From a virus, in IMG/VR virus record IMGVR_UViG_3300037483_001478, positions 71,989 through 135,988 of that record: a DNA stretch of 64,000 nt; one strand, given 5' to 3'. The translations under genes and the position numbers were made by a program. Positions within the stretch are counted from its first letter, which is position 1; every line of letters starts with the position of its first letter. Below are positions 460 to 29,344 of this stretch, one piece after another. The notes below the pieces were generated by a model. The model was not told the DNA's origin. It did not search any database and worked only from the letters and a program-made list of their open reading frames with translations.

Positions 460-3400
460 ATGAGCTCAGTTAACGCACTGGATTATGGCGCCTCGGGAGC
501 GCTGCGCTTTGCGCGCAACACAGGCAGGTCTTTGACCAGTGAATCGCTGGGTTCGATCCGCTACCCTTCGCCTTTCTTCGACATCGCCCACACGTATCTT
601 CCAACCTCGTTCAAGTCGATGCTGCGGTGGTGCCGCTACTACTTTCTGACACACCCCATCATCAATGCGGTGTGTTACAAGAAGGCGGAGTACCCTGTCA
701 CCGACCTGATCTTGGACGGAAAAGACGAGTCGCAACGAACACAGTGGGAATACCTATTCAACACGGTGTTCAACTACAAGAAGTTCGAGATCGAGGTGGG
801 CCTGGACACGGAGTGCTACGGTAACTCGTTCGTGTCGATCTCCTACCCGTTCCGAAAGCTGCTTATGTGTTCTTCCTGCCGGCGTATGGAGCAGGTAGAG
901 CGCGTAAAGTACGTCTTTCGCGACTTCAAATTTGTGGGAAAGTGCAGAAGCTGCGGGCACTACGGCGAGTTTGTGGTGCGAGACCACTATGTGCGTTCGG
1001 TGCGCGAACTTCGCCTCATTCGGTGGAACCCTGAGTACATCACGATTCAACACAACGAAGCTACCGCGGAGGACCGATACTACTACACGGTACCCGTCAC
1101 TTTGGCGAATGATATCCGCCTTGGCAAGCGCCACGTCATAGAACGAACTCCTCAAATCTTCATGGAGGCGTTGCGCCTCAACAAGTCTCTGCTGTTCAGT
1201 AAGGGGAACTTGTTCCACATTCGCCGGCCAACGATTGCCCAGAAGGACCGCGGCTGGGGAATGCCTGCAATCCTTCCGGTCCTCAAAGATGCGTTCTACT
1301 TGCAGGTCTTGCGGAAGAGTCAAGAAGCAATTTCGATCGAGCACATTGTCCCACTGCGTCTACTGTTCCCCCAGACGGCTTCCGGAAGTGCTGACGTATA
1401 TTGTGTGTCTCTCGACACCTTGGTGGAAACGAGTGAAGGGCTGCTTCCTGCAAGAGAAGTCAATGCAGGGTATTTGGTGAAGACACACTCCGGCAACTGG
1501 AAGGCGGTGGAAGCGGTAGCGGATCGCTTACTGGGTAAGTCGAAAGCTTACAAGCTTACAGCAGCAGGGCTTACAGCATTCCCTTCTATCTTGTCCGAAG
1601 AACACCCTGTTCTGGCGGCCAAGCGAGGGAAAAGGGGCGGATATGCCCAAGTGCAGGAGCCCGATTGGCTGAGGACTGAAGAGCTAGAAGTGGGAGACTA
1701 CGTTCTGTACCCCACGAAGCGCAGGGTGTGGGAAGGAACCGTCAGCGTAGACCTAGCAGATTGTGCGCCTGATCTTGCGCACACGGAAGAATACCTGTAC
1801 CGAAAGCTAGACCTCGAGAGCGCATGCATCTACGAATTTTTGGAGGCTGAAGGAAGTATTCCAGCCTTTGAGCGAGGACGCCGAGAAGCGTTCCTAGCAG
1901 AAAAAAATTGGAGCCTGGGTGCTTGGACCAACGCCCGACAAGCTTACCAATGCGGGGAAGTCGACCGCATACCTCGGCATGTCCCTGTAACCAAAGAACT
2001 GGCCTACGCCATTGGGATTTTCGTGGCGCGAGGGGGGGTCTCGGACAGCTCAGTCAATTTCGCAGTCCATCAATCCAGGGCCTATCTGGCGGACGTTCTT
2101 CAGGCAATATTCTCGCGCTTAGGCTTTCTGCGTAAAGGACCTTTGGAAGTGCGCCCTAATAGCGAGAATGGGATAACCATCAAGAGCTACGACACCTTGT
2201 TAGGGAATTTTCTGACGCATCTGTGCGGGCGCGGAGCGTTAAACAAGAGGCTTCCCAAGATCATACAAGAAGCTCCTGGTGAAATAGCCATGGAAGCGGT
2301 CCGTGGCTTGATGCAAGAGGACGGATCAAACATTCGCACGACAATGCGAAGAGTTGGTTTTTCCTCTATGAACCCAAACTTGGTCATGGGTGTTCGGCAG
2401 ATTCTTCTTTCAGAAGGGTTCATACCCGTAGTCTCCAAAGGAGAGCCTGCGGAAGAGAGCTATGGTCAGTGCGCTTCCTATAACCTCAACTTGAATGAAA
2501 AGCAGGCAGAATCCTTGGCGGCGCGGTTTGGCTGGGAACAAGCCGAAGGCTCTTGGGGAGGTAGTCAGGTTGGGTTCATTCGCGATGGCTATCTGTACCT
2601 TCGTGTGCGCGCCAAGGAGCAAGTACTTGGTGTTCCAATAGTGCGCGGATTCCAGGTAGAAGGCGACAAGAGTTTTTGCGTAGCAGGCGTCGCTACGCAC
2701 AACAGCTCAATGAATTTGCTACAATGGCGCGACAAAATCGAGCAGGAGATCATTCGTTGGCGTCTCGATAACAACTACATCCCCATCATGCCTGTTCCTG
2801 TTGGCCAACAGACTCTTGGAGGAGACGGGCGATCACTGATGCTCAATCAAGAGTATCGCGTATGGTCAGAACACATTGTTGTGGGGATGCACACCCCAGT
2901 AGAATTCGTGTTCGGGGGCGTGTCCTACAGTGCATCCAACGTGACCTTGCGCATGTTGGAGAACCATTTCCTCGAAGGACGATCTCAGCGCCTTAGCATG
3001 GTGCGGGACTTCATTATCCCCGGCGTATCTTCTTTCATGGGGTGGACTCCAATAAACGCGCGGTACAAGCGCTTTAAGATGGCAGACGATCTGCAACGGT
3101 CTGCTTTCAACCTACAGCTCAACCAGGGTGGTAAGCTTTCCGACTACTCGATGATGGAAGACCTCGATTGGGATGCTGAGGTCGAAGCTGAGCGCATTGC
3201 AAAGGAGCAGAAGAAGGTTCTAGAAAACCAGAGATCGCAGGCTACGGCGCAAGCTGCCATCCAAGGGGAGGCCCAGTTGGTGGGGGCCAAATATCAAATC
3301 CGCGCGCAGAAGTTTATGCAAGAGCAGATGCCGGCAGCGCCTATGATGCCCGGTGCGCCCGGTCAAGAAGAAACCCCAGAGGCGGGAATGCCTGCTGGCC

Positions 3401-3753
3401 AAGGAGAGGCCCCTGGACAAATGCCTCAGGCGCCGCAGATACCCGACTTAGCGGGTGAGCAAGGGCAGGGGTCGGACCCAATGGCTGCAGCTGTATCCCC
3501 TCTTGCCGCGCAGCAACAGCCTATGCAGCCAGACTTGTTGACGGTAGCACGCAAGATTGCCTCATGGTTGGATCAGCTACCTGACAATGAGAAGATGCAG
3601 AGCTTAGACCAGCTGCACCAACAGAATCCTCAGCTGCACCAGTTGGTTATTCAGTTCTTGGAGGCCAGCCGAGGGGCGGAACTAGACTCTTCCGCTGCTC
3701 CTTTACCGAACGAACGCGCGCCCCGTAGGGGGCCAGAAGCCACGATAGTCTAG
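460..3753 (+). CDS. Portal protein (intein-containing) with CxxC...CxxC insertion and Gln/Pro-rich C-terminal tail
   Basis: 1097 aa; extein sequence (YPSPFFDIAH, WCRYYFLTHPIINAV, GWGMPAILPVLKD, HIVPLRLLFP, GMHTPVEFVFGG) resembles large-phage portals; lies in the head module. Confidence 0.75.
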   Translation: MSSVNALDYGASGALRFARNTGRSLTSESLGSIRYPSPFFDIAHTYLPTSFKSMLRWCRYYFLTHPIINAVCYKKAEYPVTDLILDGKDESQRTQWEYLFNTVFNYKKFEIEVGLDTECYGNSFVSISYPFRKLLMCSSCRRMEQVERVKYVFRDFKFVGKCRSCGHYGEFVVRDHYVRSVRELRLIRWNPEYITIQHNEATAEDRYYYTVPVTLANDIRLGKRHVIERTPQIFMEALRLNKSLLFSKGNLFHIRRPTIAQKDRGWGMPAILPVLKDAFYLQVLRKSQEAISIEHIVPLRLLFPQTASGSADVYCVSLDTLVETSEGLLPAREVNAGYLVKTHSGNWKAVEAVADRLLGKSKAYKLTAAGLTAFPSILSEEHPVLAAKRGKRGGYAQVQEPDWLRTEELEVGDYVLYPTKRRVWEGTVSVDLADCAPDLAHTEEYLYRKLDLESACIYEFLEAEGSIPAFERGRREAFLAEKNWSLGAWTNARQAYQCGEVDRIPRHVPVTKELAYAIGIFVARGGVSDSSVNFAVHQSRAYLADVLQAIFSRLGFLRKGPLEVRPNSENGITIKSYDTLLGNFLTHLCGRGALNKRLPKIIQEAPGEIAMEAVRGLMQEDGSNIRTTMRRVGFSSMNPNLVMGVRQILLSEGFIPVVSKGEPAEESYGQCASYNLNLNEKQAESLAARFGWEQAEGSWGGSQVGFIRDGYLYLRVRAKEQVLGVPIVRGFQVEGDKSFCVAGVATHNSSMNLLQWRDKIEQEIIRWRLDNNYIPIMPVPVGQQTLGGDGRSLMLNQEYRVWSEHIVVGMHTPVEFVFGGVSYSASNVTLRMLENHFLEGRSQRLSMVRDFIIPGVSSFMGWTPINARYKRFKMADDLQRSAFNLQLNQGGKLSDYSMMEDLDWDAEVEAERIAKEQKKVLENQRSQATAQAAIQGEAQLVGAKYQIRAQKFMQEQMPAAPMMPGAPGQEETPEAGMPAGQGEAPGQMPQAPQIPDLAGEQGQGSDPMAAAVSPLAAQQQPMQPDLLTVARKIASWLDQLPDNEKMQSLDQLHQQNPQLHQLVIQFLEASRGAELDSSAAPLPNERAPRRGPEATIV
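1402..2703 (+). mobile_element. Intein (434 aa) in portal with degenerate LAGLIDADG endonuclease domain
   Basis: N-terminal block CVSLDTLVETSEG; C-terminal FCVAGVATHN followed by Ser +1; LAGLIDADG-like motifs YAIGIFVARGG and VRGLMQEDGS. Confidence 0.92.
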
Positions 3754-4649: not shown

Positions 4650-4747
4650 TGAATTAGTCCCCACTTTCAATGCCCCCTATCTACTAAGAGTGAGCTACCA
4701 GTAGCCACTCATAGTGCTTATACCGTAATAGTTGTTGGGTTTTATCA

Positions 4748-4776
4748 TTGACGCTATAGAGGCTCCTGCGTAGGAT
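4748..4776 (+). promoter_or_regulatory. Sigma70-like promoter upstream of the RNA polymerase gene
   Basis: TTGACG-17 nt-TAGGAT, 68 nt upstream of ATG 4844. Confidence 0.5.
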
Positions 4777-4843: not shown

Positions 4844-7800
4844 ATGACGCTGTTCAGCCCTACTGAGGCGCACAACCAGCTGCGCGACCGTGTTGCCTCC
4901 ACTATCAAAAGCTACTTCCCGGTTTCTGGCAGGAATCTGGAGCTGCGTGCCAACAAGGTATGGGTGGCGGAGCCTGAGCCAGGGGAGGCAGAAGACGTAG
5001 AAGCTCAGCAAAATGCCAAGCTGAGGGGGCAGACATGGTCCGATAACGTCTATGCCGAGCTCGAGCTACGAGACAAGGCCACGGGGAAAGTAATAGATCG
5101 AAAGGCTGCCGTGGTAGGAGAAGTCCCAAAAATCACTCGGCGCTACAGCTACATAGTGGATGGCAACGAGAAACAGATCACCAATGTCCTTCGTTTGAAG
5201 CCAGGGGTGTACTCCCGCATAGCGGACGATGGAACACTCAAGGCGCAGTGGAACTTTGCTGGAAAAGCTTTTGACCTGAAGTTCGACCCTAGCTCTCACA
5301 AAATGCTTATCACTCCAGCAGGCACCACCAAGAACGTGCCGCTTTACCCCATTTTGAAAGCGTATGGTGTAGATGACGATACCTTAGAGAAGAAGTGGGG
5401 AAAGCAGATCCTCAGCGTTAACAAAGCGCAGGACTCAGAAAAGGCTCTGAAAGACTTCTACATGGCGTTCAAGGGCAAGGCGCCTCCTTCGAACAAGGAC
5501 CTAAAGGAAGGGATTCGCACATTCTTTGACTACGTAGATTTAAACCCGGACAGCACGAAGCTCACCCTAGGTAAGCCTTACACCAAGGTGGACGGGGCTA
5601 GTTTGACAGACAGTGCCACTAAGCTGCTCAGCATCTCGCGTAAGACGGCTGAGCCGGACGAGCGAGAAGGCCTACAGTTCAAGGAGATTGTGGGAATAGA
5701 AGACTTCGTAGCAGAGTCACTAAATTCTTTCAAATCCAAGAAGCGCATTCAGGGCAGGCTGCTTAACGCCTTACGGGACAAGAAGACGGCGAAGGTATCT
5801 TCCTTAGTTTCACCTAACCTATTTGGCCGCCCCATCAATGAGGTGTTCACGTCGTCCGTGGCGGAAAACGCGACCCAGACGAACCCACTGATGTTCATCT
5901 CCGGCCATCGTCAAACCACTTTAGTGGCGCCGGGGTACGGGGGCATTAGCAAAGACCAGCAGATCTCGATGGCGGATAAGTCTTTGCACTCCTCGCAGAT
6001 TGGGTTCCTAGACCCGCTCATGACTCCCGAAAGCCCACGCATCGGGGTCAATTTGCAGCTAGCTACTGCTACACGCAAGGAAGGCAAAGACCTCAAGACG
6101 CGCGTACGGGACGTCAAGACAGGGGAGCTCAAGTGGATCGACGCAGCAGAGGCCTCTGCGAGTAACGTAGCCTTCCCCGACCAATACCGCTCGAAGGGCG
6201 GCAAGCTGGTACCTGCTTCAGATAGCGTGAAAGTAGTAGACGGTAGAGGTAATATCAGATCGATTGCTCCTAAAGACGTCAAGTACATGTACGCCCACGC
6301 CTCGGGTATGTTTGACGTTGCCTCCAATCTCATCCCGTTTCTACAAAACAATCAGGGCAACCGCACAATGGTAGCTTCTCGCCAACTTGGGCAGGCTATA
6401 TCTCTGGTCGAGCGGGAAGAACCCCTTGTGCAAAACTATGGACCCAAAGTCTCAATAGAAAAGGGCGTTGGAGGATTTGCGGCTGCACGCACAGGGGCAG
6501 GAGGCACTGTCGAGAAGGTCACTCCAGACGCCATCATCATCCGCAAGGAGAACGGAGAGAAAGCGCAGGTACCTCTGTATAATAACTTTCCTCTGAATGA
6601 GCCTACAGGACACCTCAGCTCTAATCCGTTGGTAAAAGAGGGAGACAAAGTAAAAGCAGGGCAAGTCGTATCCGACACGAATTTTACGAAAAATGGTACG
6701 CTCGCTCTCGGCACCAACCTCAAGGTGGCCTACACTCCTTTTCGCGGCTACAACTTTGAAGATGGCATCGTCATCTCGGAAACTGCTGCGAAGAAACTTA
6801 CTAGCGATCATCTCTATCGAAAGGGCGCGGTTGCAGGGGAAGGGGCTATACTCGACAAGAAAAGGTTCTTGGCGCACACGGCAGGCAACCTAACGCTAGA
6901 CCAAGCGGCCAAGTTAGGGGATGACGCTATAATCAAGGTAGGCCAGGTCGTAAGACCTGGCGACGTTCTCATCGGCTTGTTGAAGAAAGAAACTACGCGC
7001 CCCGAAGACCAAAAGATAGCCCTACTATCCAAGAATATGCTGAATCCTGTACGCGCTCGTGAAGTGCGTTGGGAGCAAGACATTCCTGGAGAAGTGGTAC
7101 GAGTTCACAGGTTAGGGGATGAAGTAGCAGTACATGTTCGGGCCCTGGCTCCTGCACGCATTGGTGATAAGATAGTCGGCAGGCACGGCAACAAGGGTAT
7201 CATAAGTGCGGTCATCCCAGACCAAGAGATGCCTTCTACAAAAGATGGGCAGCCCATGGAGGTGCTTCTCAACCAGTCTGGCGTACCTTCCCGGATCAAC
7301 CTTGGGCAAGTGCTAGAAACAGTCGCATCTAAGATCGCAGACAAGACGGGCAAGCCCTACGTCGTCAACAATTTCGACCCCACCGTTCCGGATTATGCGC
7401 GCAAGGTAGCTGCGGAGCTAGAAGAGCACGGCTTGAGCGACACGGAGGCCTTATTCGACCCTAAAACGGGAAAGAAGATGGGTGATGTACTGACAGGCAA
7501 GCAGTACATTTTGAAGCTCCACCACACTGCGGACAAAGGGCTCATCGTGCGGTCTCGGGCAGGCTACAGCTCCGATCAAATTCCGCAGAAGGGCGGACCT
7601 CACGGCGGCCAGACCATGGACGCTATGGGCTTGTACTCCCTGCTAGCGCACGGAGCCAAAGAGAACATACGAGAATTTCAAGCGCTCAAGGGTACACGCA
7701 ACGACGACTTCTGGCATAAGCTGCAAGCAGGCGACCCCATTCCGCCGCCAGATATCCCATTCGCCTACAAAAAGCTTGAAGGGTTACTTCGAGGAATGGG

Positions 7801-10800
7801 GGTCGATACCGTAAAGACGGGCAATAGCCTGTTCCTTCGTCCGCTAACAGACAAGCGCACATTGGAAATGAGCAACGGAGAGCTCACAGACGCGGGTAGG
7901 GCGCTCAAAGCTAAGGACGCGAAGCCAGAAAAGGGCGGCATCTTTGACCCTAATGCGACAGGAACGACGTCTATAGAGCGCGGTTTGGGAGACAAGTGGA
8001 GTCACATCACCTTGCCCGCACGCACGCTTAACCCTGTATTCGAAAAGCCTGCGGCTACGTTGCTAGGGCTTACAGAATCGCAGTTGGAGAATGTGCTGCT
8101 AGGCAAGGAAAAGATCGGAGATATCTCGGGCCCTAGAGCAGTTGTAGATGCCTTGCGCAAGGTGGACGCCAGCAAGCGAGAGAAGGAGCTTAGAGACCAG
8201 CTCCCGACGATGCGCAAGACTGCACGCAACAAAGCAGTCAAGGAGTTGAAGTACCTGACTGCGCTTAAAGAAGCGGGACTAACCCCCAAAGATGCGTACA
8301 CGATGAAGCATTTGCCGGTGCTACCCCCGACAATGCGCCCGGCCACCGTCTTGGATAATGGGTCCATTCAATTTGATGACGTCAACCGACTCTACTCTTA
8401 TGTCGGTATGATGAAGTCTCAGCTCGACACAGCTGACGCCTCTACCCCCAAGGATTACTTGAACGACATGGAAAGCTCCATGTACGACATGGTGAAAGGT
8501 CTCAGCCTGCAGGGGTACAATAGTCGAGGAGAGTACGCCAACACTACGCAGCACCGCAGGAGCATCGCGGAACTTGTTACAGGCATACGAGGAAGGCAGC
8601 AGCCCAAAGATGGGTTTTTTCAGAACAAGGTGATTGGCAAACGGCAGGATATGTCCATGCGCGGAACTATCGTGCCGGAACCTTCTATGTCGTTAGATGA
8701 AGTCGGCATACCCCGCAAAGCGGCTGAGGAGCTTTACAAGCCTTTGGTGGTGCGGCGCATGGTACAGATGGGTATGACCACTTTGCAAGCGCAAGATGAG
8801 ATCAAGCGTGGCAGCACTCTGGCCAGGTCTGCCCTAGAAACAGAAGTAGCAGAGCGGCCCATACTTTTAAAGCGCGACCCCGTATTGCACAAATACGGTG
8901 TCCAGGCTTTTAGGCCGAAGCTTGTAGAGGGCAACATCATCAAAATCCACCCACTGGTCACACAGGGGTATTCTGCTGACTTCGACGGCGATAAAATGTC
9001 TGCATTCGTACCTATTAGCGACAAGGCAGTGGCCGAAGCGCACAAGATGCTTCCGTCCAACAATCTATTTAGCCCATCCACGGGGCTCCTTATGGCTAAA
9101 CCTCAGCAGGAGGCTATCGTCGGCTTATACGACCTTACCAAGATCAACCCTGGCAAAGCCCAGACGTTTGCTACTGCTAAAGAAGTGGTGGCTGCGTACA
9201 GCGCGGGAAAGCTGTCGGTTAAAGATCCCATCCATCTGAACAGTACAGACGGGGCGGCGCTGGACAACGTAAAGCTGGCTGCGGGTACACCCACTACGTT
9301 GGGCAGGATGCTCGTTTATCATGCACTACCTGAATATGCGCGCAACCAGGCGACGCTCACAGACCCTAATTTCCGATTAACTAAGGGCTCTGTGGGGGAT
9401 CTCCTCACTCAGGTAGCGGAAAAGGATAAGGGTAGTTTTGGGAAAGTTGCGGACCGTTTGAAAGACCTCGGCAACGACCAGTCAACAGGCATGTCTATCC
9501 GCCTTCGGGACTTCTTCTCTGACAAGGAGTCTAGAGACACTGAGGTAGCGAAAGCCGGTAAGCAAGAAGCCAAGATAAGATCGTCGAGCATGTCTGTGGC
9601 TGAGCAAAACAACGCTATCGTAGAGCTCTATAAGAAGACGGCTGACACGGTATTGGCCAAAGCTGAGAAGAAAATCAAAGCAAGTGACAACCTGATGTAC
9701 GACTGGGTGAGGTCTAACGCTCGAGGCAACTGGAATCAGTTTCGCCAGATTGCGGTAGCTCCTTTTCTAGTGGCAGACTCGCAGAATCGCCCAGTTCCGG
9801 TGCCTATCACAAAGTCGTACTCTGAAGGTTTGGACATCGGCTCTTACTGGGCCGCAATGCATGGAGCGCGCATGGGTACCATTGCGCGGGTGGAAGGTAC
9901 GGCGGAGCCGGGTGTCCTATCCAAGCGACTTATGCAGGCCACCATGAACCAAGTGGTGACTAAAAACGACTGTGGTACTCATAACGGCGTCACTCTGTCG
10001 GTTGAGGACAAAGACGCCCTCAACCGGTTTACTGCTCGCCCTATTCAGTTGGGGGCAAGGTCTGGACAGGACAAAGGAACAATACCGGCCAAGAGCCTAG
10101 TGACGCCGGATCTTGTAAATCGATTGCGTAACAACAAGGTGATGGAGGTGACGGTACGAAGCCCCTTGAAGTGCGAGTTATCCGAGGGTGTGTGCGCTAT
10201 CTGCTACGGCTACAACGAGAGTGGGCAGCTGTCAGACAAAGGAACCAACCTAGGGGTCATTGCTGCACACTCTTTGGGAGAGCCTGCTACTCAGCTAGCC
10301 ATGAAGGTGTTCCACGAAGGGGGTCTAGTAGGGTCAAAGGCCACAGAGTCGACGCATATGTTTGAGCGGCTCCAACAGCTTACCAGCATACCCGAGAAGC
10401 TGCCGGGAGTCGCTACGTTGGCCCATACGGAAGGTCCTGTGGAGAAGGTACAGCGAGACGCGGCAGGCGGTTGGTCAGTGTTTATTCAAGGGCGCAGACA
10501 CTACGTCCCTTCGTCGCGTGACCTGCTGGTGAGCAAAGGCACCATCGTCAAGAAGGGTGATCCTTTGTCATCAGGGCCTAAACACCCGCAGGAGGTTTTG
10601 CAACTGAATGGTATGCCTGCTGTCCAGCAGTACCTCACGGACTCGCTGTGGGATGTGTACAAAAACGAAGGACCGGTACAACGCAGGAATGTTGAGACCT
10701 TTGTGCGAGCTATGACAAACACTGCCAGGGTGGTCGATCCGGGTGACCACCCGGTTTGGATGCACAACGATACTGTACCTGCCACCGCAGTGGCTGCGTA

Positions 10801-11050
10801 CAACAAGAAACTTCCGGCGTCTGCTAAGCCGGTTATCGATGCCCCAGTCCTTAAGGGCGTGGAGCAACTACCCAAAGAGCTACAGTCCGACTGGTTGGCA
10901 CTGTTGCAGACCACGAAGTTGCGGTCTACGGTGGTAGACGCTGCTGCCCAGGGGTGGAAGAGCGTCCTTCATGGGACCCATCCAATCCCTGGTATGGCCT
11001 ATGCGAAAGAGTTCGGAGAGGGTACGCCAGAAGAGCCTTGGCTCTATTAG
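4844..11050 (+). CDS. rpoBC: Phage DNA-directed RNA polymerase, beta and beta' subunits fused in one 2068-aa polypeptide
   Basis: Beta motifs GYNFEDGIVIS and GDKIVGRHGNKG; beta' motifs VIGKRQDMSMRGTIVP, LKRDPVLHK, catalytic SADFDGD (8972-8992), trigger loop AAHSLGEPATQLAMKVFHEGG; no stop at the junction (~7800-7850). Confidence 0.95.
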   Translation: MTLFSPTEAHNQLRDRVASTIKSYFPVSGRNLELRANKVWVAEPEPGEAEDVEAQQNAKLRGQTWSDNVYAELELRDKATGKVIDRKAAVVGEVPKITRRYSYIVDGNEKQITNVLRLKPGVYSRIADDGTLKAQWNFAGKAFDLKFDPSSHKMLITPAGTTKNVPLYPILKAYGVDDDTLEKKWGKQILSVNKAQDSEKALKDFYMAFKGKAPPSNKDLKEGIRTFFDYVDLNPDSTKLTLGKPYTKVDGASLTDSATKLLSISRKTAEPDEREGLQFKEIVGIEDFVAESLNSFKSKKRIQGRLLNALRDKKTAKVSSLVSPNLFGRPINEVFTSSVAENATQTNPLMFISGHRQTTLVAPGYGGISKDQQISMADKSLHSSQIGFLDPLMTPESPRIGVNLQLATATRKEGKDLKTRVRDVKTGELKWIDAAEASASNVAFPDQYRSKGGKLVPASDSVKVVDGRGNIRSIAPKDVKYMYAHASGMFDVASNLIPFLQNNQGNRTMVASRQLGQAISLVEREEPLVQNYGPKVSIEKGVGGFAAARTGAGGTVEKVTPDAIIIRKENGEKAQVPLYNNFPLNEPTGHLSSNPLVKEGDKVKAGQVVSDTNFTKNGTLALGTNLKVAYTPFRGYNFEDGIVISETAAKKLTSDHLYRKGAVAGEGAILDKKRFLAHTAGNLTLDQAAKLGDDAIIKVGQVVRPGDVLIGLLKKETTRPEDQKIALLSKNMLNPVRAREVRWEQDIPGEVVRVHRLGDEVAVHVRALAPARIGDKIVGRHGNKGIISAVIPDQEMPSTKDGQPMEVLLNQSGVPSRINLGQVLETVASKIADKTGKPYVVNNFDPTVPDYARKVAAELEEHGLSDTEALFDPKTGKKMGDVLTGKQYILKLHHTADKGLIVRSRAGYSSDQIPQKGGPHGGQTMDAMGLYSLLAHGAKENIREFQALKGTRNDDFWHKLQAGDPIPPPDIPFAYKKLEGLLRGMGVDTVKTGNSLFLRPLTDKRTLEMSNGELTDAGRALKAKDAKPEKGGIFDPNATGTTSIERGLGDKWSHITLPARTLNPVFEKPAATLLGLTESQLENVLLGKEKIGDISGPRAVVDALRKVDASKREKELRDQLPTMRKTARNKAVKELKYLTALKEAGLTPKDAYTMKHLPVLPPTMRPATVLDNGSIQFDDVNRLYSYVGMMKSQLDTADASTPKDYLNDMESSMYDMVKGLSLQGYNSRGEYANTTQHRRSIAELVTGIRGRQQPKDGFFQNKVIGKRQDMSMRGTIVPEPSMSLDEVGIPRKAAEELYKPLVVRRMVQMGMTTLQAQDEIKRGSTLARSALETEVAERPILLKRDPVLHKYGVQAFRPKLVEGNIIKIHPLVTQGYSADFDGDKMSAFVPISDKAVAEAHKMLPSNNLFSPSTGLLMAKPQQEAIVGLYDLTKINPGKAQTFATAKEVVAAYSAGKLSVKDPIHLNSTDGAALDNVKLAAGTPTTLGRMLVYHALPEYARNQATLTDPNFRLTKGSVGDLLTQVAEKDKGSFGKVADRLKDLGNDQSTGMSIRLRDFFSDKESRDTEVAKAGKQEAKIRSSSMSVAEQNNAIVELYKKTADTVLAKAEKKIKASDNLMYDWVRSNARGNWNQFRQIAVAPFLVADSQNRPVPVPITKSYSEGLDIGSYWAAMHGARMGTIARVEGTAEPGVLSKRLMQATMNQVVTKNDCGTHNGVTLSVEDKDALNRFTARPIQLGARSGQDKGTIPAKSLVTPDLVNRLRNNKVMEVTVRSPLKCELSEGVCAICYGYNESGQLSDKGTNLGVIAAHSLGEPATQLAMKVFHEGGLVGSKATESTHMFERLQQLTSIPEKLPGVATLAHTEGPVEKVQRDAAGGWSVFIQGRRHYVPSSRDLLVSKGTIVKKGDPLSSGPKHPQEVLQLNGMPAVQQYLTDSLWDVYKNEGPVQRRNVETFVRAMTNTARVVDPGDHPVWMHNDTVPATAVAAYNKKLPASAKPVIDAPVLKGVEQLPKELQSDWLALLQTTKLRSTVVDAAAQGWKSVLHGTHPIPGMAYAKEFGEGTPEEPWLY

Positions 11051-11059
11051 GAGTTAGCC

Positions 11060-12172
11060 GTGCTTGGTATTCCTGAGAGCCGTTTCTTACCTGCCGTCGT
11101 GGAAACAGTGCGCATCATCAGCGTAAATGTGGAAACATGGACGGTAGACGCGATTTCCGAGTACGGTGAGAAGAAGTTCTACGCCATCCAAATCATGAGT
11201 CCCTACTTCCATTTTATGAACGGGGAAGGGATCTACACCATGCCAGAGGTGGGAGCGCTGGCATGGGTATGCAAGCCCAGCTCGGGCAGCAGGGCCGCCC
11301 CATTCCTTTTGGGGTTCCAAGCACCGTTTGATGAGACCAATGCTGGGTTTAGGGTAAATCGGCCGCCTATGAACCCGGGCGACATCATGATGCGCACCCG
11401 AGACGAAAATTTCATCACCCTTCGCCGCGGAGGGGTAGTTCAGATTGGGGCCAACCCCATTTCTCAGCGCATCTACCTTCCGATCCTCAACTACATCAAG
11501 GACTTCTGCGAGAACTACCAGCTATCTACTTTTGGGGGCGAGATCACTTGGACGACAGAAAGAGTCGACCAGTCGAGCGCAGGAGAAGTGGGTACCCGTT
11601 TTGCCCTCTTGGCTCGCGAGAAGGCCAGTGACCCCCAGCACATAGCCTCTTTGACGATTGGTTCTCATGGCGAGGATAGCGCTACTATACTGGACCTGAA
11701 GGTACTTGCGGCAGGAGCTCCGGGGGCCGTAGAGCAGGTGCGCCTTACCCTTGGCAAGGACGGGAACGTTACTTGGCAGGTTCAGGATTCTTGGGACCTA
11801 ACCGCGCAGGGGTCGGTAAGCGTAACAGCGCAAACTGGGAGCCTGAACCTCAGCAGCCCAGCGGGCGCTACGCAAATAGAGGCGGGAGAATCTGTAGACG
11901 TGAAAGCCGCTACCGACGTTTTGGTAGAAGCTGGAGGTACCAGCACCGACCGGGCCGCTCAGAAGATTGTTGATTCTCCGGTCATTCGATTGGGCAGTTC
12001 GGCGGCAAAGAATCCAGTAGTAAAGGGGTCTAACCTCGTAAGTTTTTTGGATCACCTCATTACAGCGATAGAGGCAATCCAAGCCCCCTCTGGTCCGGTA
12101 GTTGCTACTGCCGTAACGTTGTTGAGGGCCGAACTATCAACCTTGATTTCATCCGGTGTGTTCGTCGAGTAG
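11060..12172 (+). CDS. Baseplate central spike-like protein (gpV/gp5-type OB-fold plus beta-strand repeats)
   Basis: N-terminal OB-fold-like MPEVGALAWV...FLLGF; C-terminal short beta-repeats; ends with PVVKGSNL-type motif. Confidence 0.55.
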   Translation: MLGIPESRFLPAVVETVRIISVNVETWTVDAISEYGEKKFYAIQIMSPYFHFMNGEGIYTMPEVGALAWVCKPSSGSRAAPFLLGFQAPFDETNAGFRVNRPPMNPGDIMMRTRDENFITLRRGGVVQIGANPISQRIYLPILNYIKDFCENYQLSTFGGEITWTTERVDQSSAGEVGTRFALLAREKASDPQHIASLTIGSHGEDSATILDLKVLAAGAPGAVEQVRLTLGKDGNVTWQVQDSWDLTAQGSVSVTAQTGSLNLSSPAGATQIEAGESVDVKAATDVLVEAGGTSTDRAAQKIVDSPVIRLGSSAAKNPVVKGSNLVSFLDHLITAIEAIQAPSGPVVATAVTLLRAELSTLISSGVFVE

Positions 12173-12181
12173 GAGAGGTCA

Positions 12182-14167
12182 ATGCATTCTCAGCCTTTGT
12201 TTCTGGATTCTGCCCTGCTGTTCGAAGGGGCTGAAAAGCTGGCCGGTACTCTTACCCGGCTCAGTGACAATGTCGACACGTGGCCCCAAGAGGTTATTCA
12301 GGAGGCCTACAAGCAGGTACCTTACCTGAGCGACTTTGAGGCGAACGTCGTCCTCGACAAGATTGATGAGGAGCGCGGATTTGCTTTTGGGTCGGTCGAG
12401 GTGCGCCCCAAAACTGCCAAGACCCTCGAAGAGCAGCAGATGGCCGGAGGAGTCAAAGCGCACATCCCCATTATCGTCAAAGAACAGCTCCTGAGCCCCC
12501 TAGATGTGTTCATGGTGGGCAAGCAGTACCACCATCTCACTGAGGGCAAGCTGCGCTCGGCGCTGTTCCAGCCAGACTTCTTTGACGCAACGCGCATGCG
12601 GCCCTACGACCCTTCGCTTGTATACGACCTGCTACCTCCTACCAGGATGGGCGGCGGCATGGGCTCGGGGGTGAAGATGGGCTCGGCAGAGCTGCCCCTA
12701 CTGCCCATGCTGCATTACACCGTCAAGGCAGCGCACAGCGACCGTATGCGGGAGGCAATGCAGGACCCTTCAATCCTAGCGGCCGCTAGCGCTAGCCCTG
12801 AAGGAGTGAAGGCAGCGTTCTTGTCGGCAGCGGGTCTGCAGGTGTCTTCGCCCACAAAGATCGCCGAGGCTTTGTCTGAGCGAATCCGGCCCAATGTCGT
12901 CCAGATTACCAAGCTCGGTTCTCGGCGGGCCCTGGTCAAGTGGGCCAACACCGACATGTACGCGCCCCAGGAAGAGGAAATGCCTCTTTCCACAGCGATG
13001 GACATGATGGGGCAGGAAGACGAGGTCCAACAGCTCGATGCCGACGGCACGATTACCTTGTCCCCCAACCCTGTAGTCAAGAAGACGCTGGAGGCAGAAG
13101 AGGTTGATGTGGCCAAGTCCTTTGGCCTTTGGAAGGTACAAGACGTCACGGGAAATACGCTAGTAGGCTGGGTGTTCCCCAATCTCTTGTCGCTCGACAT
13201 GTCCTCCATGCCCCTGAGCTTATTCACCAATGGCTCTCAGTACGCCCTACAAGGCGACATAGCAGGAGTAGCCGCGGGCAAATCGACGGACATCCCAAAG
13301 GGCATACCGAGGGGGTACGGCGCGCTCTACTACATCGATCACGGTACAGCACGCTGCTTTGTGCCGATGACTGTCAACAACACGTACCGCGGCCCTGACG
13401 GCTTGGTGCGGTACATGGCTCAGACTGACCTCGGTGAGCACGTGATGTTCTCGTTTGCTGACGGCCTGAAGACCGTGGTCAAAACAGGAACAAATGAGTA
13501 CGCAGTACCTACTACCGTTAGCTGGCTGCCCCTTCGGGGACAAACCGAGCTCGTCGAGAACCCCATGGGGTTCTCGAAGGTGGCTAAGTTGACCAGTACG
13601 GTGGAGCTCATCAGCGATGGGGCAACTTGGTCGTACCGCGGGGCAGGGGTGGCGAAACTAGCCTCTTCTCAGACCAAGTTCCTTTCGCGACGCGACGCCG
13701 AGTTCATGGGAGCCTCCCTCGGAGTAGAGCGCTCCTTCTTGAAAGAAGCCCTAGATTCCTCCAAGCGCACAGGCCACCCGGTAGAGTTTGTGGGGGTACG
13801 CCCTATTACGCTGTTGCGGGACAAGCTGGCAGAGGCCAAGTTACAGGTGCAAGGTGACTTGGCCGACCTGCCGGTGCCCATCCACAACTACTTCCTGGTC
13901 AAGGAAGCTACGCTTCTCGATGACGCGCTTACCGCGGACAAGATCCTCGGCCTGGGCTTCATCAACGCCGAGAATGTGGGAACGTTTGTTGACATGCTGC
14001 CGGACCTCGAGCGCACTTCCACGAAGCTGGCGGAGCTCCTCATCGCAGTGCGTATCGGTTTGAAAGATGTCCCTGAAGTAGCGGTTGAGCGTATGCTCAA
14101 AGCCCTCGAGGATGTCATCGGGGGCTTGAGATCTTTGAAGCAACAAGAACAAGTGACCATGCAGTAG
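12182..14167 (+). CDS. Hypothetical virion-associated protein (661 aa)
   Basis: Long ORF with AGGAG RBS in the structural operon; contains EKLA and AKVAKL motifs. Confidence 0.75.
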   Translation: MHSQPLFLDSALLFEGAEKLAGTLTRLSDNVDTWPQEVIQEAYKQVPYLSDFEANVVLDKIDEERGFAFGSVEVRPKTAKTLEEQQMAGGVKAHIPIIVKEQLLSPLDVFMVGKQYHHLTEGKLRSALFQPDFFDATRMRPYDPSLVYDLLPPTRMGGGMGSGVKMGSAELPLLPMLHYTVKAAHSDRMREAMQDPSILAAASASPEGVKAAFLSAAGLQVSSPTKIAEALSERIRPNVVQITKLGSRRALVKWANTDMYAPQEEEMPLSTAMDMMGQEDEVQQLDADGTITLSPNPVVKKTLEAEEVDVAKSFGLWKVQDVTGNTLVGWVFPNLLSLDMSSMPLSLFTNGSQYALQGDIAGVAAGKSTDIPKGIPRGYGALYYIDHGTARCFVPMTVNNTYRGPDGLVRYMAQTDLGEHVMFSFADGLKTVVKTGTNEYAVPTTVSWLPLRGQTELVENPMGFSKVAKLTSTVELISDGATWSYRGAGVAKLASSQTKFLSRRDAEFMGASLGVERSFLKEALDSSKRTGHPVEFVGVRPITLLRDKLAEAKLQVQGDLADLPVPIHNYFLVKEATLLDDALTADKILGLGFINAENVGTFVDMLPDLERTSTKLAELLIAVRIGLKDVPEVAVERMLKALEDVIGGLRSLKQQEQVTMQ

Positions 14168-25833: not shown

Positions 25834-26444
25834 GTGTTACCCAGAAGTTGGCTGCGGCCGGCCATTTGACTCCCGAGCAGGCTGCTCGGGTAACGGAACG
25901 CGTGCGTTCGTTCAAGACGGCTTTGGCGCACGACTCCAGCTTGCGAAAGCAAGCAGATGGCTTTTTCAGTCGGGTAGGTCAGAGGCTAGGCCCCACGGCG
26001 GAGCAAACTTTGGCTCATGCCATCGCTGCAGGGTCCCTAGGCCTCGGGGTATCCACGGGGGCCGCTGGCGTACAGGCAGTGATTGACCATGTGCGCAAGG
26101 CTCGCGCCTACAAGGCGATGATTGACGCCAATCCTGAGCTGGCTGATGCTAACCTGGATAGGGTTCAGGCGCTCCACAACAGCCTTTACCGGGTAAATCC
26201 TCAGTACGCCCGAGACCCTCTCATTGCGGGGGAGTTCGTTAAGGGTCTGATCAACCAGGCTCAAATACCGATGCAAGCGTTTACGAGTACTGCCTTACGG
26301 GAACACCCCAACCAAGCCCTAGAGTTTGCCACTAAGATGCTTGCCACCAAGGTTCCGGATAAGCCTCTGCCCACCTCGAGAAGAGGTAGCCCAGAAGACG
26401 CTCCTCTGGATCCGACCGCCGCTGCTTACCTTCGAGGGTACTGA
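25830..26444 (+). CDS. Hypothetical head-region protein with glycine-zipper segment
   Basis: ATGA overlap; QKLA/RKQA motifs; AGSLGLGVSTGAAG. Confidence 0.7.
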   Translation: MSVTQKLAAAGHLTPEQAARVTERVRSFKTALAHDSSLRKQADGFFSRVGQRLGPTAEQTLAHAIAAGSLGLGVSTGAAGVQAVIDHVRKARAYKAMIDANPELADANLDRVQALHNSLYRVNPQYARDPLIAGEFVKGLINQAQIPMQAFTSTALREHPNQALEFATKMLATKVPDKPLPTSRRGSPEDAPLDPTAAAYLRGY

Positions 26445-29344
26445 TGCTCACCAAGCTGGCCACTTTTTCTCCTTTCGCGCCCGACGGGGACCCGCTTGTG
26501 CGGGTTTTCCACAAGGGAGATTCAATTCAGAAGGTGGCTGGGCATATGCTGCCCGAGATCCGGGATTGGCTAAGCTGCTACACACCTCCCAAGAACAAGC
26601 TGGCGGTGCTCATCCACGCTTTGGGGGCCACAGAGTATTACGGCCAAAACTCGAACGGCGATGCGTTTTACGAGGACGCGCTCATCCACGACTGTCGGGG
26701 TCACAAGGAGCACGCGCACCCCATTGACGATTTCACCGGTAAGATCATCCCACCCTATGGCTATTGGACCTTCGAATTCGCGCACGCCTTTCAGCATCAC
26801 CGCAACAATGACCCTACCCGCGCATTCGGCAACGTACAGCTAGCTTGCTGGCATCCGTCCATGAAACGGGTCGAGCTCGTTGTGGAGATCGACCGCGACC
26901 TCGCAATGGCGCATGGGGCTCAAGGCGTAGTTGATCGCATAGATGCGGGCGAGCCTTCAGCAACATCGATGGGCTGCCGTGTTCCCTACGATGTGTGCCT
27001 TATCTGTGAGCACAAAGCCCGTACCAAAGACGAGTACTGCACCTGCGTAAAGCAGATTGGGATGGGGAAGATCCTCGATGACGGGCGGCAGATAGGTGTA
27101 GCCAACCCTCACCCGCGCTTTTTCGATATCAGCTTCGTCTTCGTCGGTGCAGACAAAACCTCATGGGCCACAGCTAAGCTGGCCAGTGCTGGGAACATCC
27201 CACAGTCAGTGCTTGACGCAGAGCTCCTGTATGGACCGCCAATCGCACAGGAAGGGCTGGTAAAGGCCGCCTCTTACGAGATGCCTACAGAGTCTCGGAC
27301 GTACGAGGTAGCCGGGCACCCGGATACTGTCAAGACCGTCGATAAATTCCTGCAAGTGGTCCAGCATTTGGGCAGTATCGGGGCGAGTAGATCTTTAGAG
27401 GTGTCGGTGGACGGAGACGGCCCCGAGCGCTTATCCGTAAAAGGCACAAAAACGCCCCTAGATCGCAATTCTTTGGAGTCTGCAGTAGATCAGGACACTG
27501 TGCCTCTTCGCGCGATAAAGAGCGCTGCATCCGTCTCGGAGTTCTCTGGGGAGTCTATTGAGGAGGGGACGGGTCTCCCTTTGCGCCACCAGCTCGTGTT
27601 TGGCGAAACCCGCGATGGCTCCGGCAGGGTTATCGTCACTCGCAAGGCCCCACCTCCCGAGGAAACCACAACTCTGCTCCTCGGCAAGCCAGACTACCAG
27701 GAGGACTATCCCGGCGATGAGGATAGCATTCTTCGCTTGACGCACCCTGACGACTACCGGAACAAGCAAAGTTCAGTGGACCTTACAGACCTCATCGAGC
27801 GCGCGAAGTACGTTAAGGTAGGCCCCCCTCCTACGCCCAATCGTAAGGAGTTCCCATTCGTGGGGGCCCTCAACTTCCGAGGACTGGAGGTCCATGTAGA
27901 GCAAAAGCAAGGGGATGTGCGCGAGGGTACTAGCTCGTCTGGCAAGAAATGGCGTACGGTGATGAACTTTCCATACGGAGAGTTCAAAGGGAGCCGTGGC
28001 ACAGATGGAGACAAGCTCGACGTTTACGTCGGGCCTTACCGTAATGCGCCGAATGTCTACATCGTGCACCAAAACCACCCTCGAGGCCACGGTAAGGCAG
28101 GACACTATGACGAAGACAAGGTGATGCTCGGCTTCCGCTCTCCTGAGGAAGCAAAGGCAGCATACCTATCTCAGTATTCCAACGACTCGTTTTTTCGATC
28201 TATCACCACAATGTCATTTAACCTTTTCAAGCGCGCACTTGAGCGCAAAGAGGTGCATGGGCAAAAGGTGGCAGGCTATCGGCAACTGATGACGAAGGTA
28301 GCGGAGGAGCTAGCTCTTGAAGACTTGTTTGCGCAGCCTTCGTTACAGCGCCAGCGCGTGTGGAGGTCTCTTGGCGGCAAAGAAGTTCGGGCGACAGGAT
28401 CGGGGCTGTCGAAGCTATCCTCCGCCCGAATAACGGCTCAAGAACTCTTGAAGTTGTCCGATGACAAGCTCGCGGATCTGCGCAAATGGGCGGACATCGT
28501 GAAGGAGATTGGCCCCAGTAAGGCAGTGGGTCAGGTAAGCCCTGCTCTGAGCGACGCGGAACCTGACTTGCCAAAAGAGCTGCTGAACGTCATGGGGAAG
28601 ATGCCTACGGCAGGAGCTCTTGCAACGCCTTCTTTGCTAGGCATGGTGCTGAAGCCCCGGGAGTTTCAGCGAGTGATGCTTACGGGCTGCGGCGAGCAAG
28701 AGCTTGCAGATGACCTGGACGCGCGCAATGCTCAGTTTGAGCCAGATCCCTTGACGGAGCATTGTCCTTGCCAGAGTTTGCAGAGTTCTGACCTGCTGCC
28801 CAAGCTCCTGTCTGTCCTGTTGCCTTTTATCGGGGACCGGTCGTACGCTACTCCTGTCGTACGCCGCCGCATCATCAACATCACTCTTTCGCCCACGGCG
28901 GCGAAAAATCCTTCATCTTTTGAAAAATCACCACTTCTCTCAAAAGTGGCAGCCGCCTACAATTGGTACCGCCGGGAGCAATTGAAGCTCGCAGCGGACA
29001 TGCCCAGAGTAATAGCAGCAGACCCTCAGATTTACAGTCGGATGTTCGGCATGGACCTTGAGGGTATGTTTGCGAAAGAAGCTATGACACGCGGCCAGCT
29101 TTACGGTACGTTAGGAGCGATTCCATTAACCCTCATGTATTCCGCTCACCAAAAGGAAAAGCGTATGCATGGGGTACCTCTTGGGGTTATCGATTCATTT
29201 GCGGCCGACCACCCTTGGGTGAGTTCTTTAGGAGCGGTAACAGGGATGAAGCATCTTCTTACCAGTCCCTCTACTGCAGTCATGAGAAAAGACTTGGGTG
29301 ATTTTGGCCGTAAACTATGGCATGGAGTAGGGCCGCAGGCATGA
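26444..29344 (+). CDS. Prohead (maturation) protease polyprotein with Zn-binding insert and an embedded inorganic pyrophosphatase (InPase) domain
   Basis: Assemblin/HK97-type protease-like motifs FQHH, ATSMGC, FDISFV; CLIC...CTC insert; InPase motifs YG...GTDGDKLDVYVGP and YDEDKVMLGF at 27851-28240. Confidence 0.72.
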   Translation: MLTKLATFSPFAPDGDPLVRVFHKGDSIQKVAGHMLPEIRDWLSCYTPPKNKLAVLIHALGATEYYGQNSNGDAFYEDALIHDCRGHKEHAHPIDDFTGKIIPPYGYWTFEFAHAFQHHRNNDPTRAFGNVQLACWHPSMKRVELVVEIDRDLAMAHGAQGVVDRIDAGEPSATSMGCRVPYDVCLICEHKARTKDEYCTCVKQIGMGKILDDGRQIGVANPHPRFFDISFVFVGADKTSWATAKLASAGNIPQSVLDAELLYGPPIAQEGLVKAASYEMPTESRTYEVAGHPDTVKTVDKFLQVVQHLGSIGASRSLEVSVDGDGPERLSVKGTKTPLDRNSLESAVDQDTVPLRAIKSAASVSEFSGESIEEGTGLPLRHQLVFGETRDGSGRVIVTRKAPPPEETTTLLLGKPDYQEDYPGDEDSILRLTHPDDYRNKQSSVDLTDLIERAKYVKVGPPPTPNRKEFPFVGALNFRGLEVHVEQKQGDVREGTSSSGKKWRTVMNFPYGEFKGSRGTDGDKLDVYVGPYRNAPNVYIVHQNHPRGHGKAGHYDEDKVMLGFRSPEEAKAAYLSQYSNDSFFRSITTMSFNLFKRALERKEVHGQKVAGYRQLMTKVAEELALEDLFAQPSLQRQRVWRSLGGKEVRATGSGLSKLSSARITAQELLKLSDDKLADLRKWADIVKEIGPSKAVGQVSPALSDAEPDLPKELLNVMGKMPTAGALATPSLLGMVLKPREFQRVMLTGCGEQELADDLDARNAQFEPDPLTEHCPCQSLQSSDLLPKLLSVLLPFIGDRSYATPVVRRRIINITLSPTAAKNPSSFEKSPLLSKVAAAYNWYRREQLKLAADMPRVIAADPQIYSRMFGMDLEGMFAKEAMTRGQLYGTLGAIPLTLMYSAHQKEKRMHGVPLGVIDSFAADHPWVSSLGAVTGMKHLLTSPSTAVMRKDLGDFGRKLWHGVGPQA

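Follow-up and report, generated by a model that had tools for sequence, protein, structure and literature searches.

Genomic setting of the polymerase gene

A window of 64,000 nucleotides (nt; positions 71,989 to 135,988 of IMG/VR record IMGVR_UViG_3300037483_001478) was found to carry, in one open reading frame (ORF), both large subunits of a bacterial-type RNA polymerase, beta followed by beta'. The window comes from a single 176,864-bp virus record originating from sediment metagenomes, with a completeness of 92% according to CheckV. The encoded portal, terminase, capsid and spike homologues identify the source as an uncultured virus of the tailed-phage type. The polymerase gene and its neighbours are arranged as follows (window coordinates):

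460..3753, plus strand: portal gene upstream of the polymerase gene, 32% identical to the portal gp204 of Salmonella phage Arash (E = 1e-55)
4844..11050, plus strand: fused beta-beta' RNA polymerase gene, a single open frame of 2068 amino acids (aa)
11060..12172, plus strand: Gp5/VgrG-like spike gene downstream of the polymerase gene (Phage_base_V neighbours at 0.95)

The portal gene is longer than that of relatives. Close relatives keep the gene order portal, polymerase, spike, and in all relatives examined the polymerase gene lies behind the portal, inside the head module. The placement between portal and spike genes, proposed in an initial annotation of the window, was thereby confirmed.

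Architecture of the fused enzyme

Residue correspondence was taken from an alignment to Salmonella RpoB plus RpoC and is given in E. coli numbering. The main parts of the chain are:

4844..7828, plus strand: beta half, aa 1 to ~995, by alignment to Salmonella RpoB
7802..7843, plus strand: beta/beta' junction; the model shows strands aa 987-992 and 995-1000 paired as a beta-hairpin around a 2-residue turn
7934..8002, plus strand: short loop in place of the beta' N-terminal zinc domain, by alignment
9971..10204, plus strand: second (C-terminal) zinc site, C1710, C1777, C1784 and C1787

By Pfam, the beta domains span aa 13-909 of the frame and the beta' domains aa 1122-1845, which agrees with the initial description of one uninterrupted ORF carrying both subunits. 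The beta half is free of the E. coli lineage insertions (about 225-343 and 938-1040), and the fused chain is ~680 aa shorter than Salmonella beta plus beta'. All catalytic residues of a bacterial-type two-barrel polymerase are present in the alignment: E813/D814, K1065, K1073, R1106 and H1237 are retained in beta, and the three catalytic aspartates, R425, Q929 and H936 in beta'. The predicted model matched bacterial beta' folds (Foldseek E = 6e-28, probability 1.0), and the nearest solved relatives are bacterial subunits with ~30% identity over most of the chain length. The genome holds one polymerase and one sigma factor. Judged from its sequence, the ORF at 4844-11050 probably encodes an active minimal two-barrel enzyme, the sole RNA polymerase of this genome.

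In both alignment and model, the C-terminus of beta passes through the 2-residue turn directly into beta', at residue ~18 in the Salmonella alignment; the direct junction noted at the outset therefore stands. A contig from a second, independent study covers positions 7321-8189, across the junction, with zero differences. Because this contig bridges the junction and 119 homologues share the layout, the fusion is real and not an assembly artefact.

The reported absence of the beta' N-terminal zinc domain was likewise upheld. Residues 64-95 of beta', including C70, C72, C85 and C88, are replaced by about 10 residues. C70, C72 and C88 are gapped in 36/36 family rows, while C85 is gapped in 35 and is Gly in one; all four cysteines are present in 17/17 bacteria and 6/6 unfused phage enzymes. 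The second zinc site is retained, as initially described, and its four cysteines are the only ones in the chain. Two family members (P0066 and P0071) have no cysteine at all and have thus lost both zinc sites.

Active site and rifampicin pocket

8972..8992, plus strand: SADFDGD active site, equivalent to an N458S substitution; aa 1377-1383, three Asp intact

Among 120 proteins, the active-site motif was NADFDGD in 114, SADFDGD in three and GADFDGD in two. Arash and Vibrio phage D69 carry AADYDGD, and relatives have Ser, Gly, Ala or Thr at the same position. Further variants were seen in L166 (GADNDGD), L188 (NADNDGD) and L148 (TADFDGD). In E. coli, beta' N458S lowers selectivity at the binding step 4-fold, and with 2'dGTP in processive transcription the mutant behaves largely like the wild type (PMC7862312). 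R425, the main substrate selector, is retained. The codon is covered by the possible source run only, and a sequence error could explain the Ser. The motif highlighted in the initial annotation is thus present, but it does not characterize the enzyme type (3/120 only). Its roles as a family signature or a substrate switch were ruled out, given Asn in 114/120 and the mild effect of N458S; SADFDGD is a private substitution, incidental and probably tolerated. The rifampicin pocket is altered at four positions (D516T, H526G, R529Q, S531T), and because the pocket is remodelled, the enzyme is predicted to be rifampicin-insensitive.

Polymerase family and phylogeny

The best 119 homologues are 42-57% identical to the present protein, mostly 2030-2120 aa long, and all fused. 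Among cultured phages, Salmonella phage Arash and Vibrio phages D69, D148 and D181 are related; their enzymes, in Arash Gp206 plus Gp216 with sigma Gp10 (OQ632216; PMC10585845), belong to the same clade as the present one. The beta-beta' fusion and the loss of the zinc domain are family-wide traits in these sequences. No description of a fused beta-beta' family was found in the literature searched; in the Arash paper, Gp206 is labelled as beta only and the fusion is not described (PMC10585845).

The polymerase tree comprised 38 rows and 1199 columns (LG+C20, quick search), with 11 bacteria of nine phyla, no archaeal outgroup, no Helicobacter or Wolbachia, and long branches. Bacteria formed a single clade (100). 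The 22-row family core, including Arash and D69, was recovered at SH-aLRT 100, apart from the unfused phage enzymes. The mReC-sized unfused enzymes L192 and L194 keep the zinc domain and also branch apart from the family. Long-branch attraction may contribute to the placement of the family outside Bacteria. The tree excludes recent capture from the sampled bacterial phyla and gives no date of origin. Since the family does not nest within the sampled Bacteria, the earlier view of a streamlined phage enzyme, for which a phylogeny of the two halves had been suggested as a check, gained support.

Fusions of rpoB and rpoC occur in Helicobacter and Wolbachia, with beta preceding beta', as full enzymes with alpha, omega and the zinc domain. 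The present enzyme shares this subunit order but lacks the zinc domain, has no match to an alpha or omega gene in its genome and branches apart from the sampled Bacteria. Capture of such a bacterial fusion, or an assembly artefact, would fit the bacterial identity of the best solved relatives (~30%). However, the artefact is refuted by the independent contig and by the fusion shared among the 119 homologues, and capture is contradicted by the separate bacterial clade and by the lack of the zinc domain in every family member examined; this explanation as a whole is extremely improbable. Family members in GTDB were rejected as a clue to the host: 80 loci among the matches listed were ordinary bacterial rpoC.

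Sigma factor and promoters

G000 26312-27079 (coordinates of the source record), ~45 kb upstream of the window: sigma70-family gene, 255 aa, passing the Sigma70_r3 cut-off
4706..4743, minus strand: phage-type promoter candidate, AAA, about 16 nt, GGTATAAG, then TG; points away from the polymerase gene
4748..4776, plus strand: sigma70-like promoter candidate, TTGACG-17-TAGGAT, preceding the polymerase gene

The initial annotation had noted that genes for alpha, omega and sigma are missing from the window. The searches agree with this for the window itself, but the enzyme is not sigma-less, as the genome encodes a sigma factor farther upstream, in a structural operon. Matches of the sigma family to the SigB/F/G and FliA models stay below the respective cut-offs; the match to SigA structures has E = 7e-19. 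A search with the Sigma70_r2 profile gave no match, and word-based searches mostly missed the sigma homologues; Pfam alone under-calls the present sigma. Homologues were present in 21/25 related records, including 15/16 near-complete ones, and Arash Gp10 is a homologue of the present sigma (E = 6e-13). A second sigma like the annotated Arash Gp196 was not found in the present genome.

A complex model of polymerase aa 620-1340 with the sigma factor scored 0.77 versus 0.01 for the best control, above a mark reached by 58/80 solved pairs and 2/110 mismatched pairs. Runs agreed in at least 81% of contacts, with partner pLDDT (predicted local distance difference test) of at least 77. In the model, sigma contacts the clamp helices, lid and flap tip, which corresponds to canonical docking. 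This score may reflect likeness to solved holoenzymes more than binding.

A promoter-like motif, GG(T/G/C)ATAAG followed by five bases and TG, occurs at 20 sites in the genome, 17 of them on the minus strand. Many sites lie 40-80 bp before non-structural genes, and none within structural operons. The matrix was trained on eight of the genome's own sites, making this genome count partly circular; the upstream AAA box and the counts in Arash and D69 were therefore relied upon. The AAA box, 20-22 bp upstream of the motif and outside the trained window, was found at 15/18 sites versus 1/18 for the adjacent window. Exact copies of the motif number 19 in Arash and 13 in D69 and lie almost entirely on a single strand; the reversed pattern gives one and two. 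As the motif is kept across phages of different hosts, we infer a bipartite, family-specific promoter read by phage proteins. Palindromic sites with the ATAAG motif on both strands were observed outside the window in gene-poor stretches (G000 144732 and 149585).

The scan for sigma70-like sites returned one site versus 0.6 expected, which is weak alone; similar sites lie upstream of the polymerase gene in 13/83 relatives and 0/83 coding controls. A genome-wide late promoter resembling the site upstream of the polymerase gene was not found. At 4706-4776, the minus-strand phage-type and the plus-strand sigma70-like candidates are divergently arranged, only a few bases separating their upstream boxes, and a minus-strand motif site above 10 bits is present at the polymerase start in 35/82 relatives. 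Mutual occlusion of these promoters could regulate the polymerase gene.

Alpha and omega subunits

No match to an alpha gene was found in the 26 genomes searched (the present genome and 25 relatives), and none to an omega gene in the present genome. A conserved small upstream gene was rejected as an alpha/omega substitute, the plus-strand ORFs there being unrelated frames. Several bacteria-invariant alpha contacts (K1057, E1083, D1084, G1215 and beta' K370, W409 and D410) are each retained by no more than 11% of family rows; at the alpha-facing hairpins, structural Gly/Val positions are conserved. The phiKZ and AR9 enzymes function without alpha (PMC7598289, PMC8287921, PMC9209446), and the AR9 beta' is split near the alpha-II face; the jumbo-phage split also falls after the catalytic barrel. 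With no alpha gene found and the precedent of phiKZ and AR9, alpha-independence is plausible and likely.

A hybrid core, in which the injected enzyme borrows host alpha (and omega), would accord with the Gly/Val positions and with overall retention of the alpha contacts at background level. It appears unlikely in view of the loss of the bacteria-invariant polar and aromatic contacts in most family rows and of the alpha-free function of the phiKZ and AR9 enzymes, including the AR9 split.

Virion packaging

Packaging in the virion, hinted at in the initial annotation, is likely by analogy with Arash. In purified Arash particles, Gp206 gave 3516 spectra, the most of all proteins, Gp216 gave 1210 and Gp10 gave 467 (PMC10585845). 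Alternatively, host sigma70 polymerase could transcribe the gene and the new enzyme read middle genes, its presence in Arash particles being carry-over. The sigma70-like promoter upstream of the gene here and in close relatives and the impurity of the Arash proteome speak for such a non-virion enzyme. However, the Gp206 spectra exceed those of every other protein, every relative examined has the gene next to its portal gene, within the head module, sigma is encoded in a structural operon, and the enzyme carries a head-protein motif, described below; we regard the non-virion alternative as improbable.

Inserted loop and probable prohead protease

9239..9295, plus strand: inserted loop aa 1466-1484 with K1477-L-A, a probable prohead-protease site at a natural split hairpin
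26444..29344, plus strand: probable prohead protease polyprotein, the candidate cutter (nearest clusters Peptidase_S78/S77 at 0.91-0.92, a lead)

Family members show one of three states at aa 1466-1484: a tight turn (most members), a gene split, or an insert. In the split state (Arash/D69, L162, L184/186/191), one gene ends before the turn and the next starts after it; such splits are seen on three branches, each with separate support, that lie among fused relatives. The first gene of Arash and D69 corresponds to aa 3-1465 and the second to aa 1485-2060 of the fused protein. Other splits were also noted: L158 (3740-9172) is in at least three pieces, yet whole at the beta' hairpin, and L180 and L182 are split also within beta and have very long C-terminal pieces (1670 and 1453 aa).

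The insert state, found in the branch of the present phage, consists of 14-39 aa of variable sequence. Lys-x-(Ala/Gly/Ser) is present in 45/47 inserts, and the strict motif in 41/47, compared with a shuffle mean of 11.5 and maximum of 23, so the VKLAA site pointed out initially is a real signal. Ala follows the motif in 29/41, and small residues stand at the positions expected around a cut. The insert requires two changes on a 94-row tree, and the 47 inserts are not independent cases. In the model, pLDDT is below 50 at aa 1477-1479, in the loop. Lys-x-Ala occurrences elsewhere in the chain, including the beta/beta' junction (near aa 431, 836, 997, 1094 and 1255) were rejected as Lys-x-Gly turns or conserved core; aa ~1472 is the only site that stands out under the stricter motif. 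Arash Gp206 (L021 19971-24548) and D69 0261 (L022 14962-19545) have their own 36-aa clamp insert with Lys-x-Ala at the position of aa ~1095 of the present protein, and Arash has a further Lys-x-Ala insert near aa 1988.

Five head-region proteins, among them the probable prohead protease, are enriched in the Lys-x-Ala code (p = 0.003), which also marks the head proteins of Arash and D69. Scaffold-like head proteins contain 1-2.4 sites per 100 aa, with an identical consensus in the inserts. The protease polyprotein has 10 sites versus 1.9 expected, and these flank the protease domain (26444-27250). It also includes an inorganic pyrophosphatase domain (PF18823), and Arash particles contain a pyrophosphatase as well. 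In the systems of the T4 gp21, phiKZ gp175 and SPN3US gp245 proteases, head proteins and the protease itself likewise carry a three-residue P3-x-P1 code. Their sites are typically behind an N-terminal propeptide, whereas the present code is Lys-x-Ala and lies inside the polymerase.

On balance, given the analogy to the SPN3US A-x-E code and the match between the loop and the pieces encoded by Arash, it is somewhat more likely than not that the head protease cuts the chain at aa 1477-1479 in this branch. The enzyme is thus encoded as one ORF, as initially claimed, but a mature single chain is in doubt, since the loop is a natural split point. The present copy adds the observation that an inserted protease-type site falls on a recurrent gene split point.

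The loop could instead be a packaging tag bound by scaffold or protease, or a flexible relic, with the virion enzyme remaining whole. The density of the motif in scaffold-like head proteins, the many uncut head proteins of SPN3US and the variation of the same beta' hairpin in bacteria (14 to 38 aa) speak for this alternative. However, small residues flank the site as they do around cuts, the natural splits demonstrate that the fold tolerates a break there, and the identical motif lies to either side of the protease domain. Its presence in 45/47 variable inserts would not be kept up by a pure relic. An uncut enzyme of this kind is a doubtful alternative, although less so than the non-virion enzyme.

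Proposed mode of action

The explanation we prefer, with a probability of about 0.68 for the whole, is an enzyme made whole, sigma-using, packed, injected and probably cut. The polymerase is made as one beta-beta' chain. It would work with the phage's own sigma70-family factor (G000 26312-27079), as the complex model suggests, and would most likely dispense with alpha and omega. By extension from Arash proteomics, polymerase and sigma would be packed in the head and injected, and the position and conservation of the bipartite promoter suggest that the injected enzyme transcribes non-structural genes from it. Cleavage at aa 1477-1479 would yield pieces of ~1480 and ~590 aa, equivalent to Arash Gp206 and Gp216. 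A more specific proposal, that this is a capsid-packed, protease-matured two-protein holoenzyme (the beta-beta' chain, free of alpha and zinc domain, plus sigma) that reads its own bipartite promoter and whose genetic and proteolytic splits arose independently at the same hairpin, is made tentatively.

Several observations weigh against this explanation. In half of the close homologues the hairpin is a plain turn that carries no site, so the family as a whole does not need the cut. The mapped SPN3US cuts, except the protease's own, all remove N-terminal propeptides. Primase and ribonucleotide reductase were among the 116 proteins of the Arash preparation, and the authors of that study consider carry-over possible (PMC10585845). 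Furthermore, a host-type sigma70-like promoter candidate precedes the polymerase gene, and alpha-contact retention in the family (0.39) versus background (0.43) does not show an overall loss.

Comparison with known polymerases

The enzyme is a member of the Arash/D69 family that would resemble the phiKZ virion polymerase in function (alpha-less, packed) and a bacterial holoenzyme in architecture. In common with Arash and D69 are the fusion of beta to the N-terminal part of beta', the missing zinc domain and the gene position behind the portal, together with homologous sigma, portal, capsid, terminase and protease, the promoter-like motif and Lys-x-Ala-rich head proteins. The Arash/D69 gene is split at aa 1465/1485, where the present phage has one ORF with the Lys-x-Ala loop; identity is ~31%.

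The mReC phages (Weinheimer and Aylward 2020, PMC7481178) are likewise tailed, with beta and beta' alignable to cellular subunits and placed outside Bacteria. However, beta and beta' are two distinct proteins in all rows of Supplementary Data 2 considered here, and NADxDGD was a requirement of the screen; the present fused enzyme with SADFDGD differs in both respects. The mReC markers are capsid PF07068 and terminase PF03237, whereas the present capsid protein has no Pfam match and the terminase matches PF05876. The phage thus falls outside the published mReC definition; in the tree, which contains no published mReC sequences, unfused mReC-sized enzymes branch apart.

The phiKZ and AR9 enzymes (PMC7598289, PMC8287921, PMC9209446) have no alpha or omega, a virion-packed set and a beta' split after the catalytic barrel, features with likely counterparts in the present family. 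They differ in comprising two enzymes of four or five core chains that are far more diverged, with a sigma-like subunit unrecognisable by sequence, in contrast to one enzyme, one chain and an ordinary-looking sigma here. The crAss-like, YonO and P23-45 enzymes are also single-chain two-barrel phage polymerases, some of them virion-packed, but are hardly alignable to cellular subunits and are not known to use a sigma70-family factor.

If the proposed explanation is true, no simpler bacterial-type polymerase that uses a sigma70 factor is known, and the need for alpha, omega and the beta' zinc domain could be tested on a natural example; the zinc domain is reported to assist in opening promoters whose -35 contacts are weak (10.1101/2020.01.02.893370). 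The recurrent breaks at a single hairpin, genetic and possibly also proteolytic, would bear on the alpha-less assembly of large enzymes and on their passage through the phage tail. Arash is cultured, has a high burst and possesses the same enzyme, sigma and promoter motif, making these ideas testable now. With its own promoter and predicted insensitivity to rifampicin, the polymerase could also be used as an orthogonal expression tool. To the extent covered by the Supplementary Data 2 rows above, the fused family was missed by the mReC survey.

Other genes in the window

A SNF2-family helicase with two Lys-x-Ala sites is encoded at 17284-19674. Its Arash homologue, Gp217, adjoins Gp216 and is abundant in virions (1148 spectra); the helicase is possibly an injected RapA-like helper. 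A Lys-x-Ala-rich protein of 661 aa with no known family is encoded at 12182-14167; it occurs near the polymerase gene in 63 loci and is a candidate polymerase partner or inner-head protein. Inteins were noted in the terminase (21367-24348) and for the homologues P0004, P0013 and P0039. Many family polymerases contain inteins, with none in the present one.

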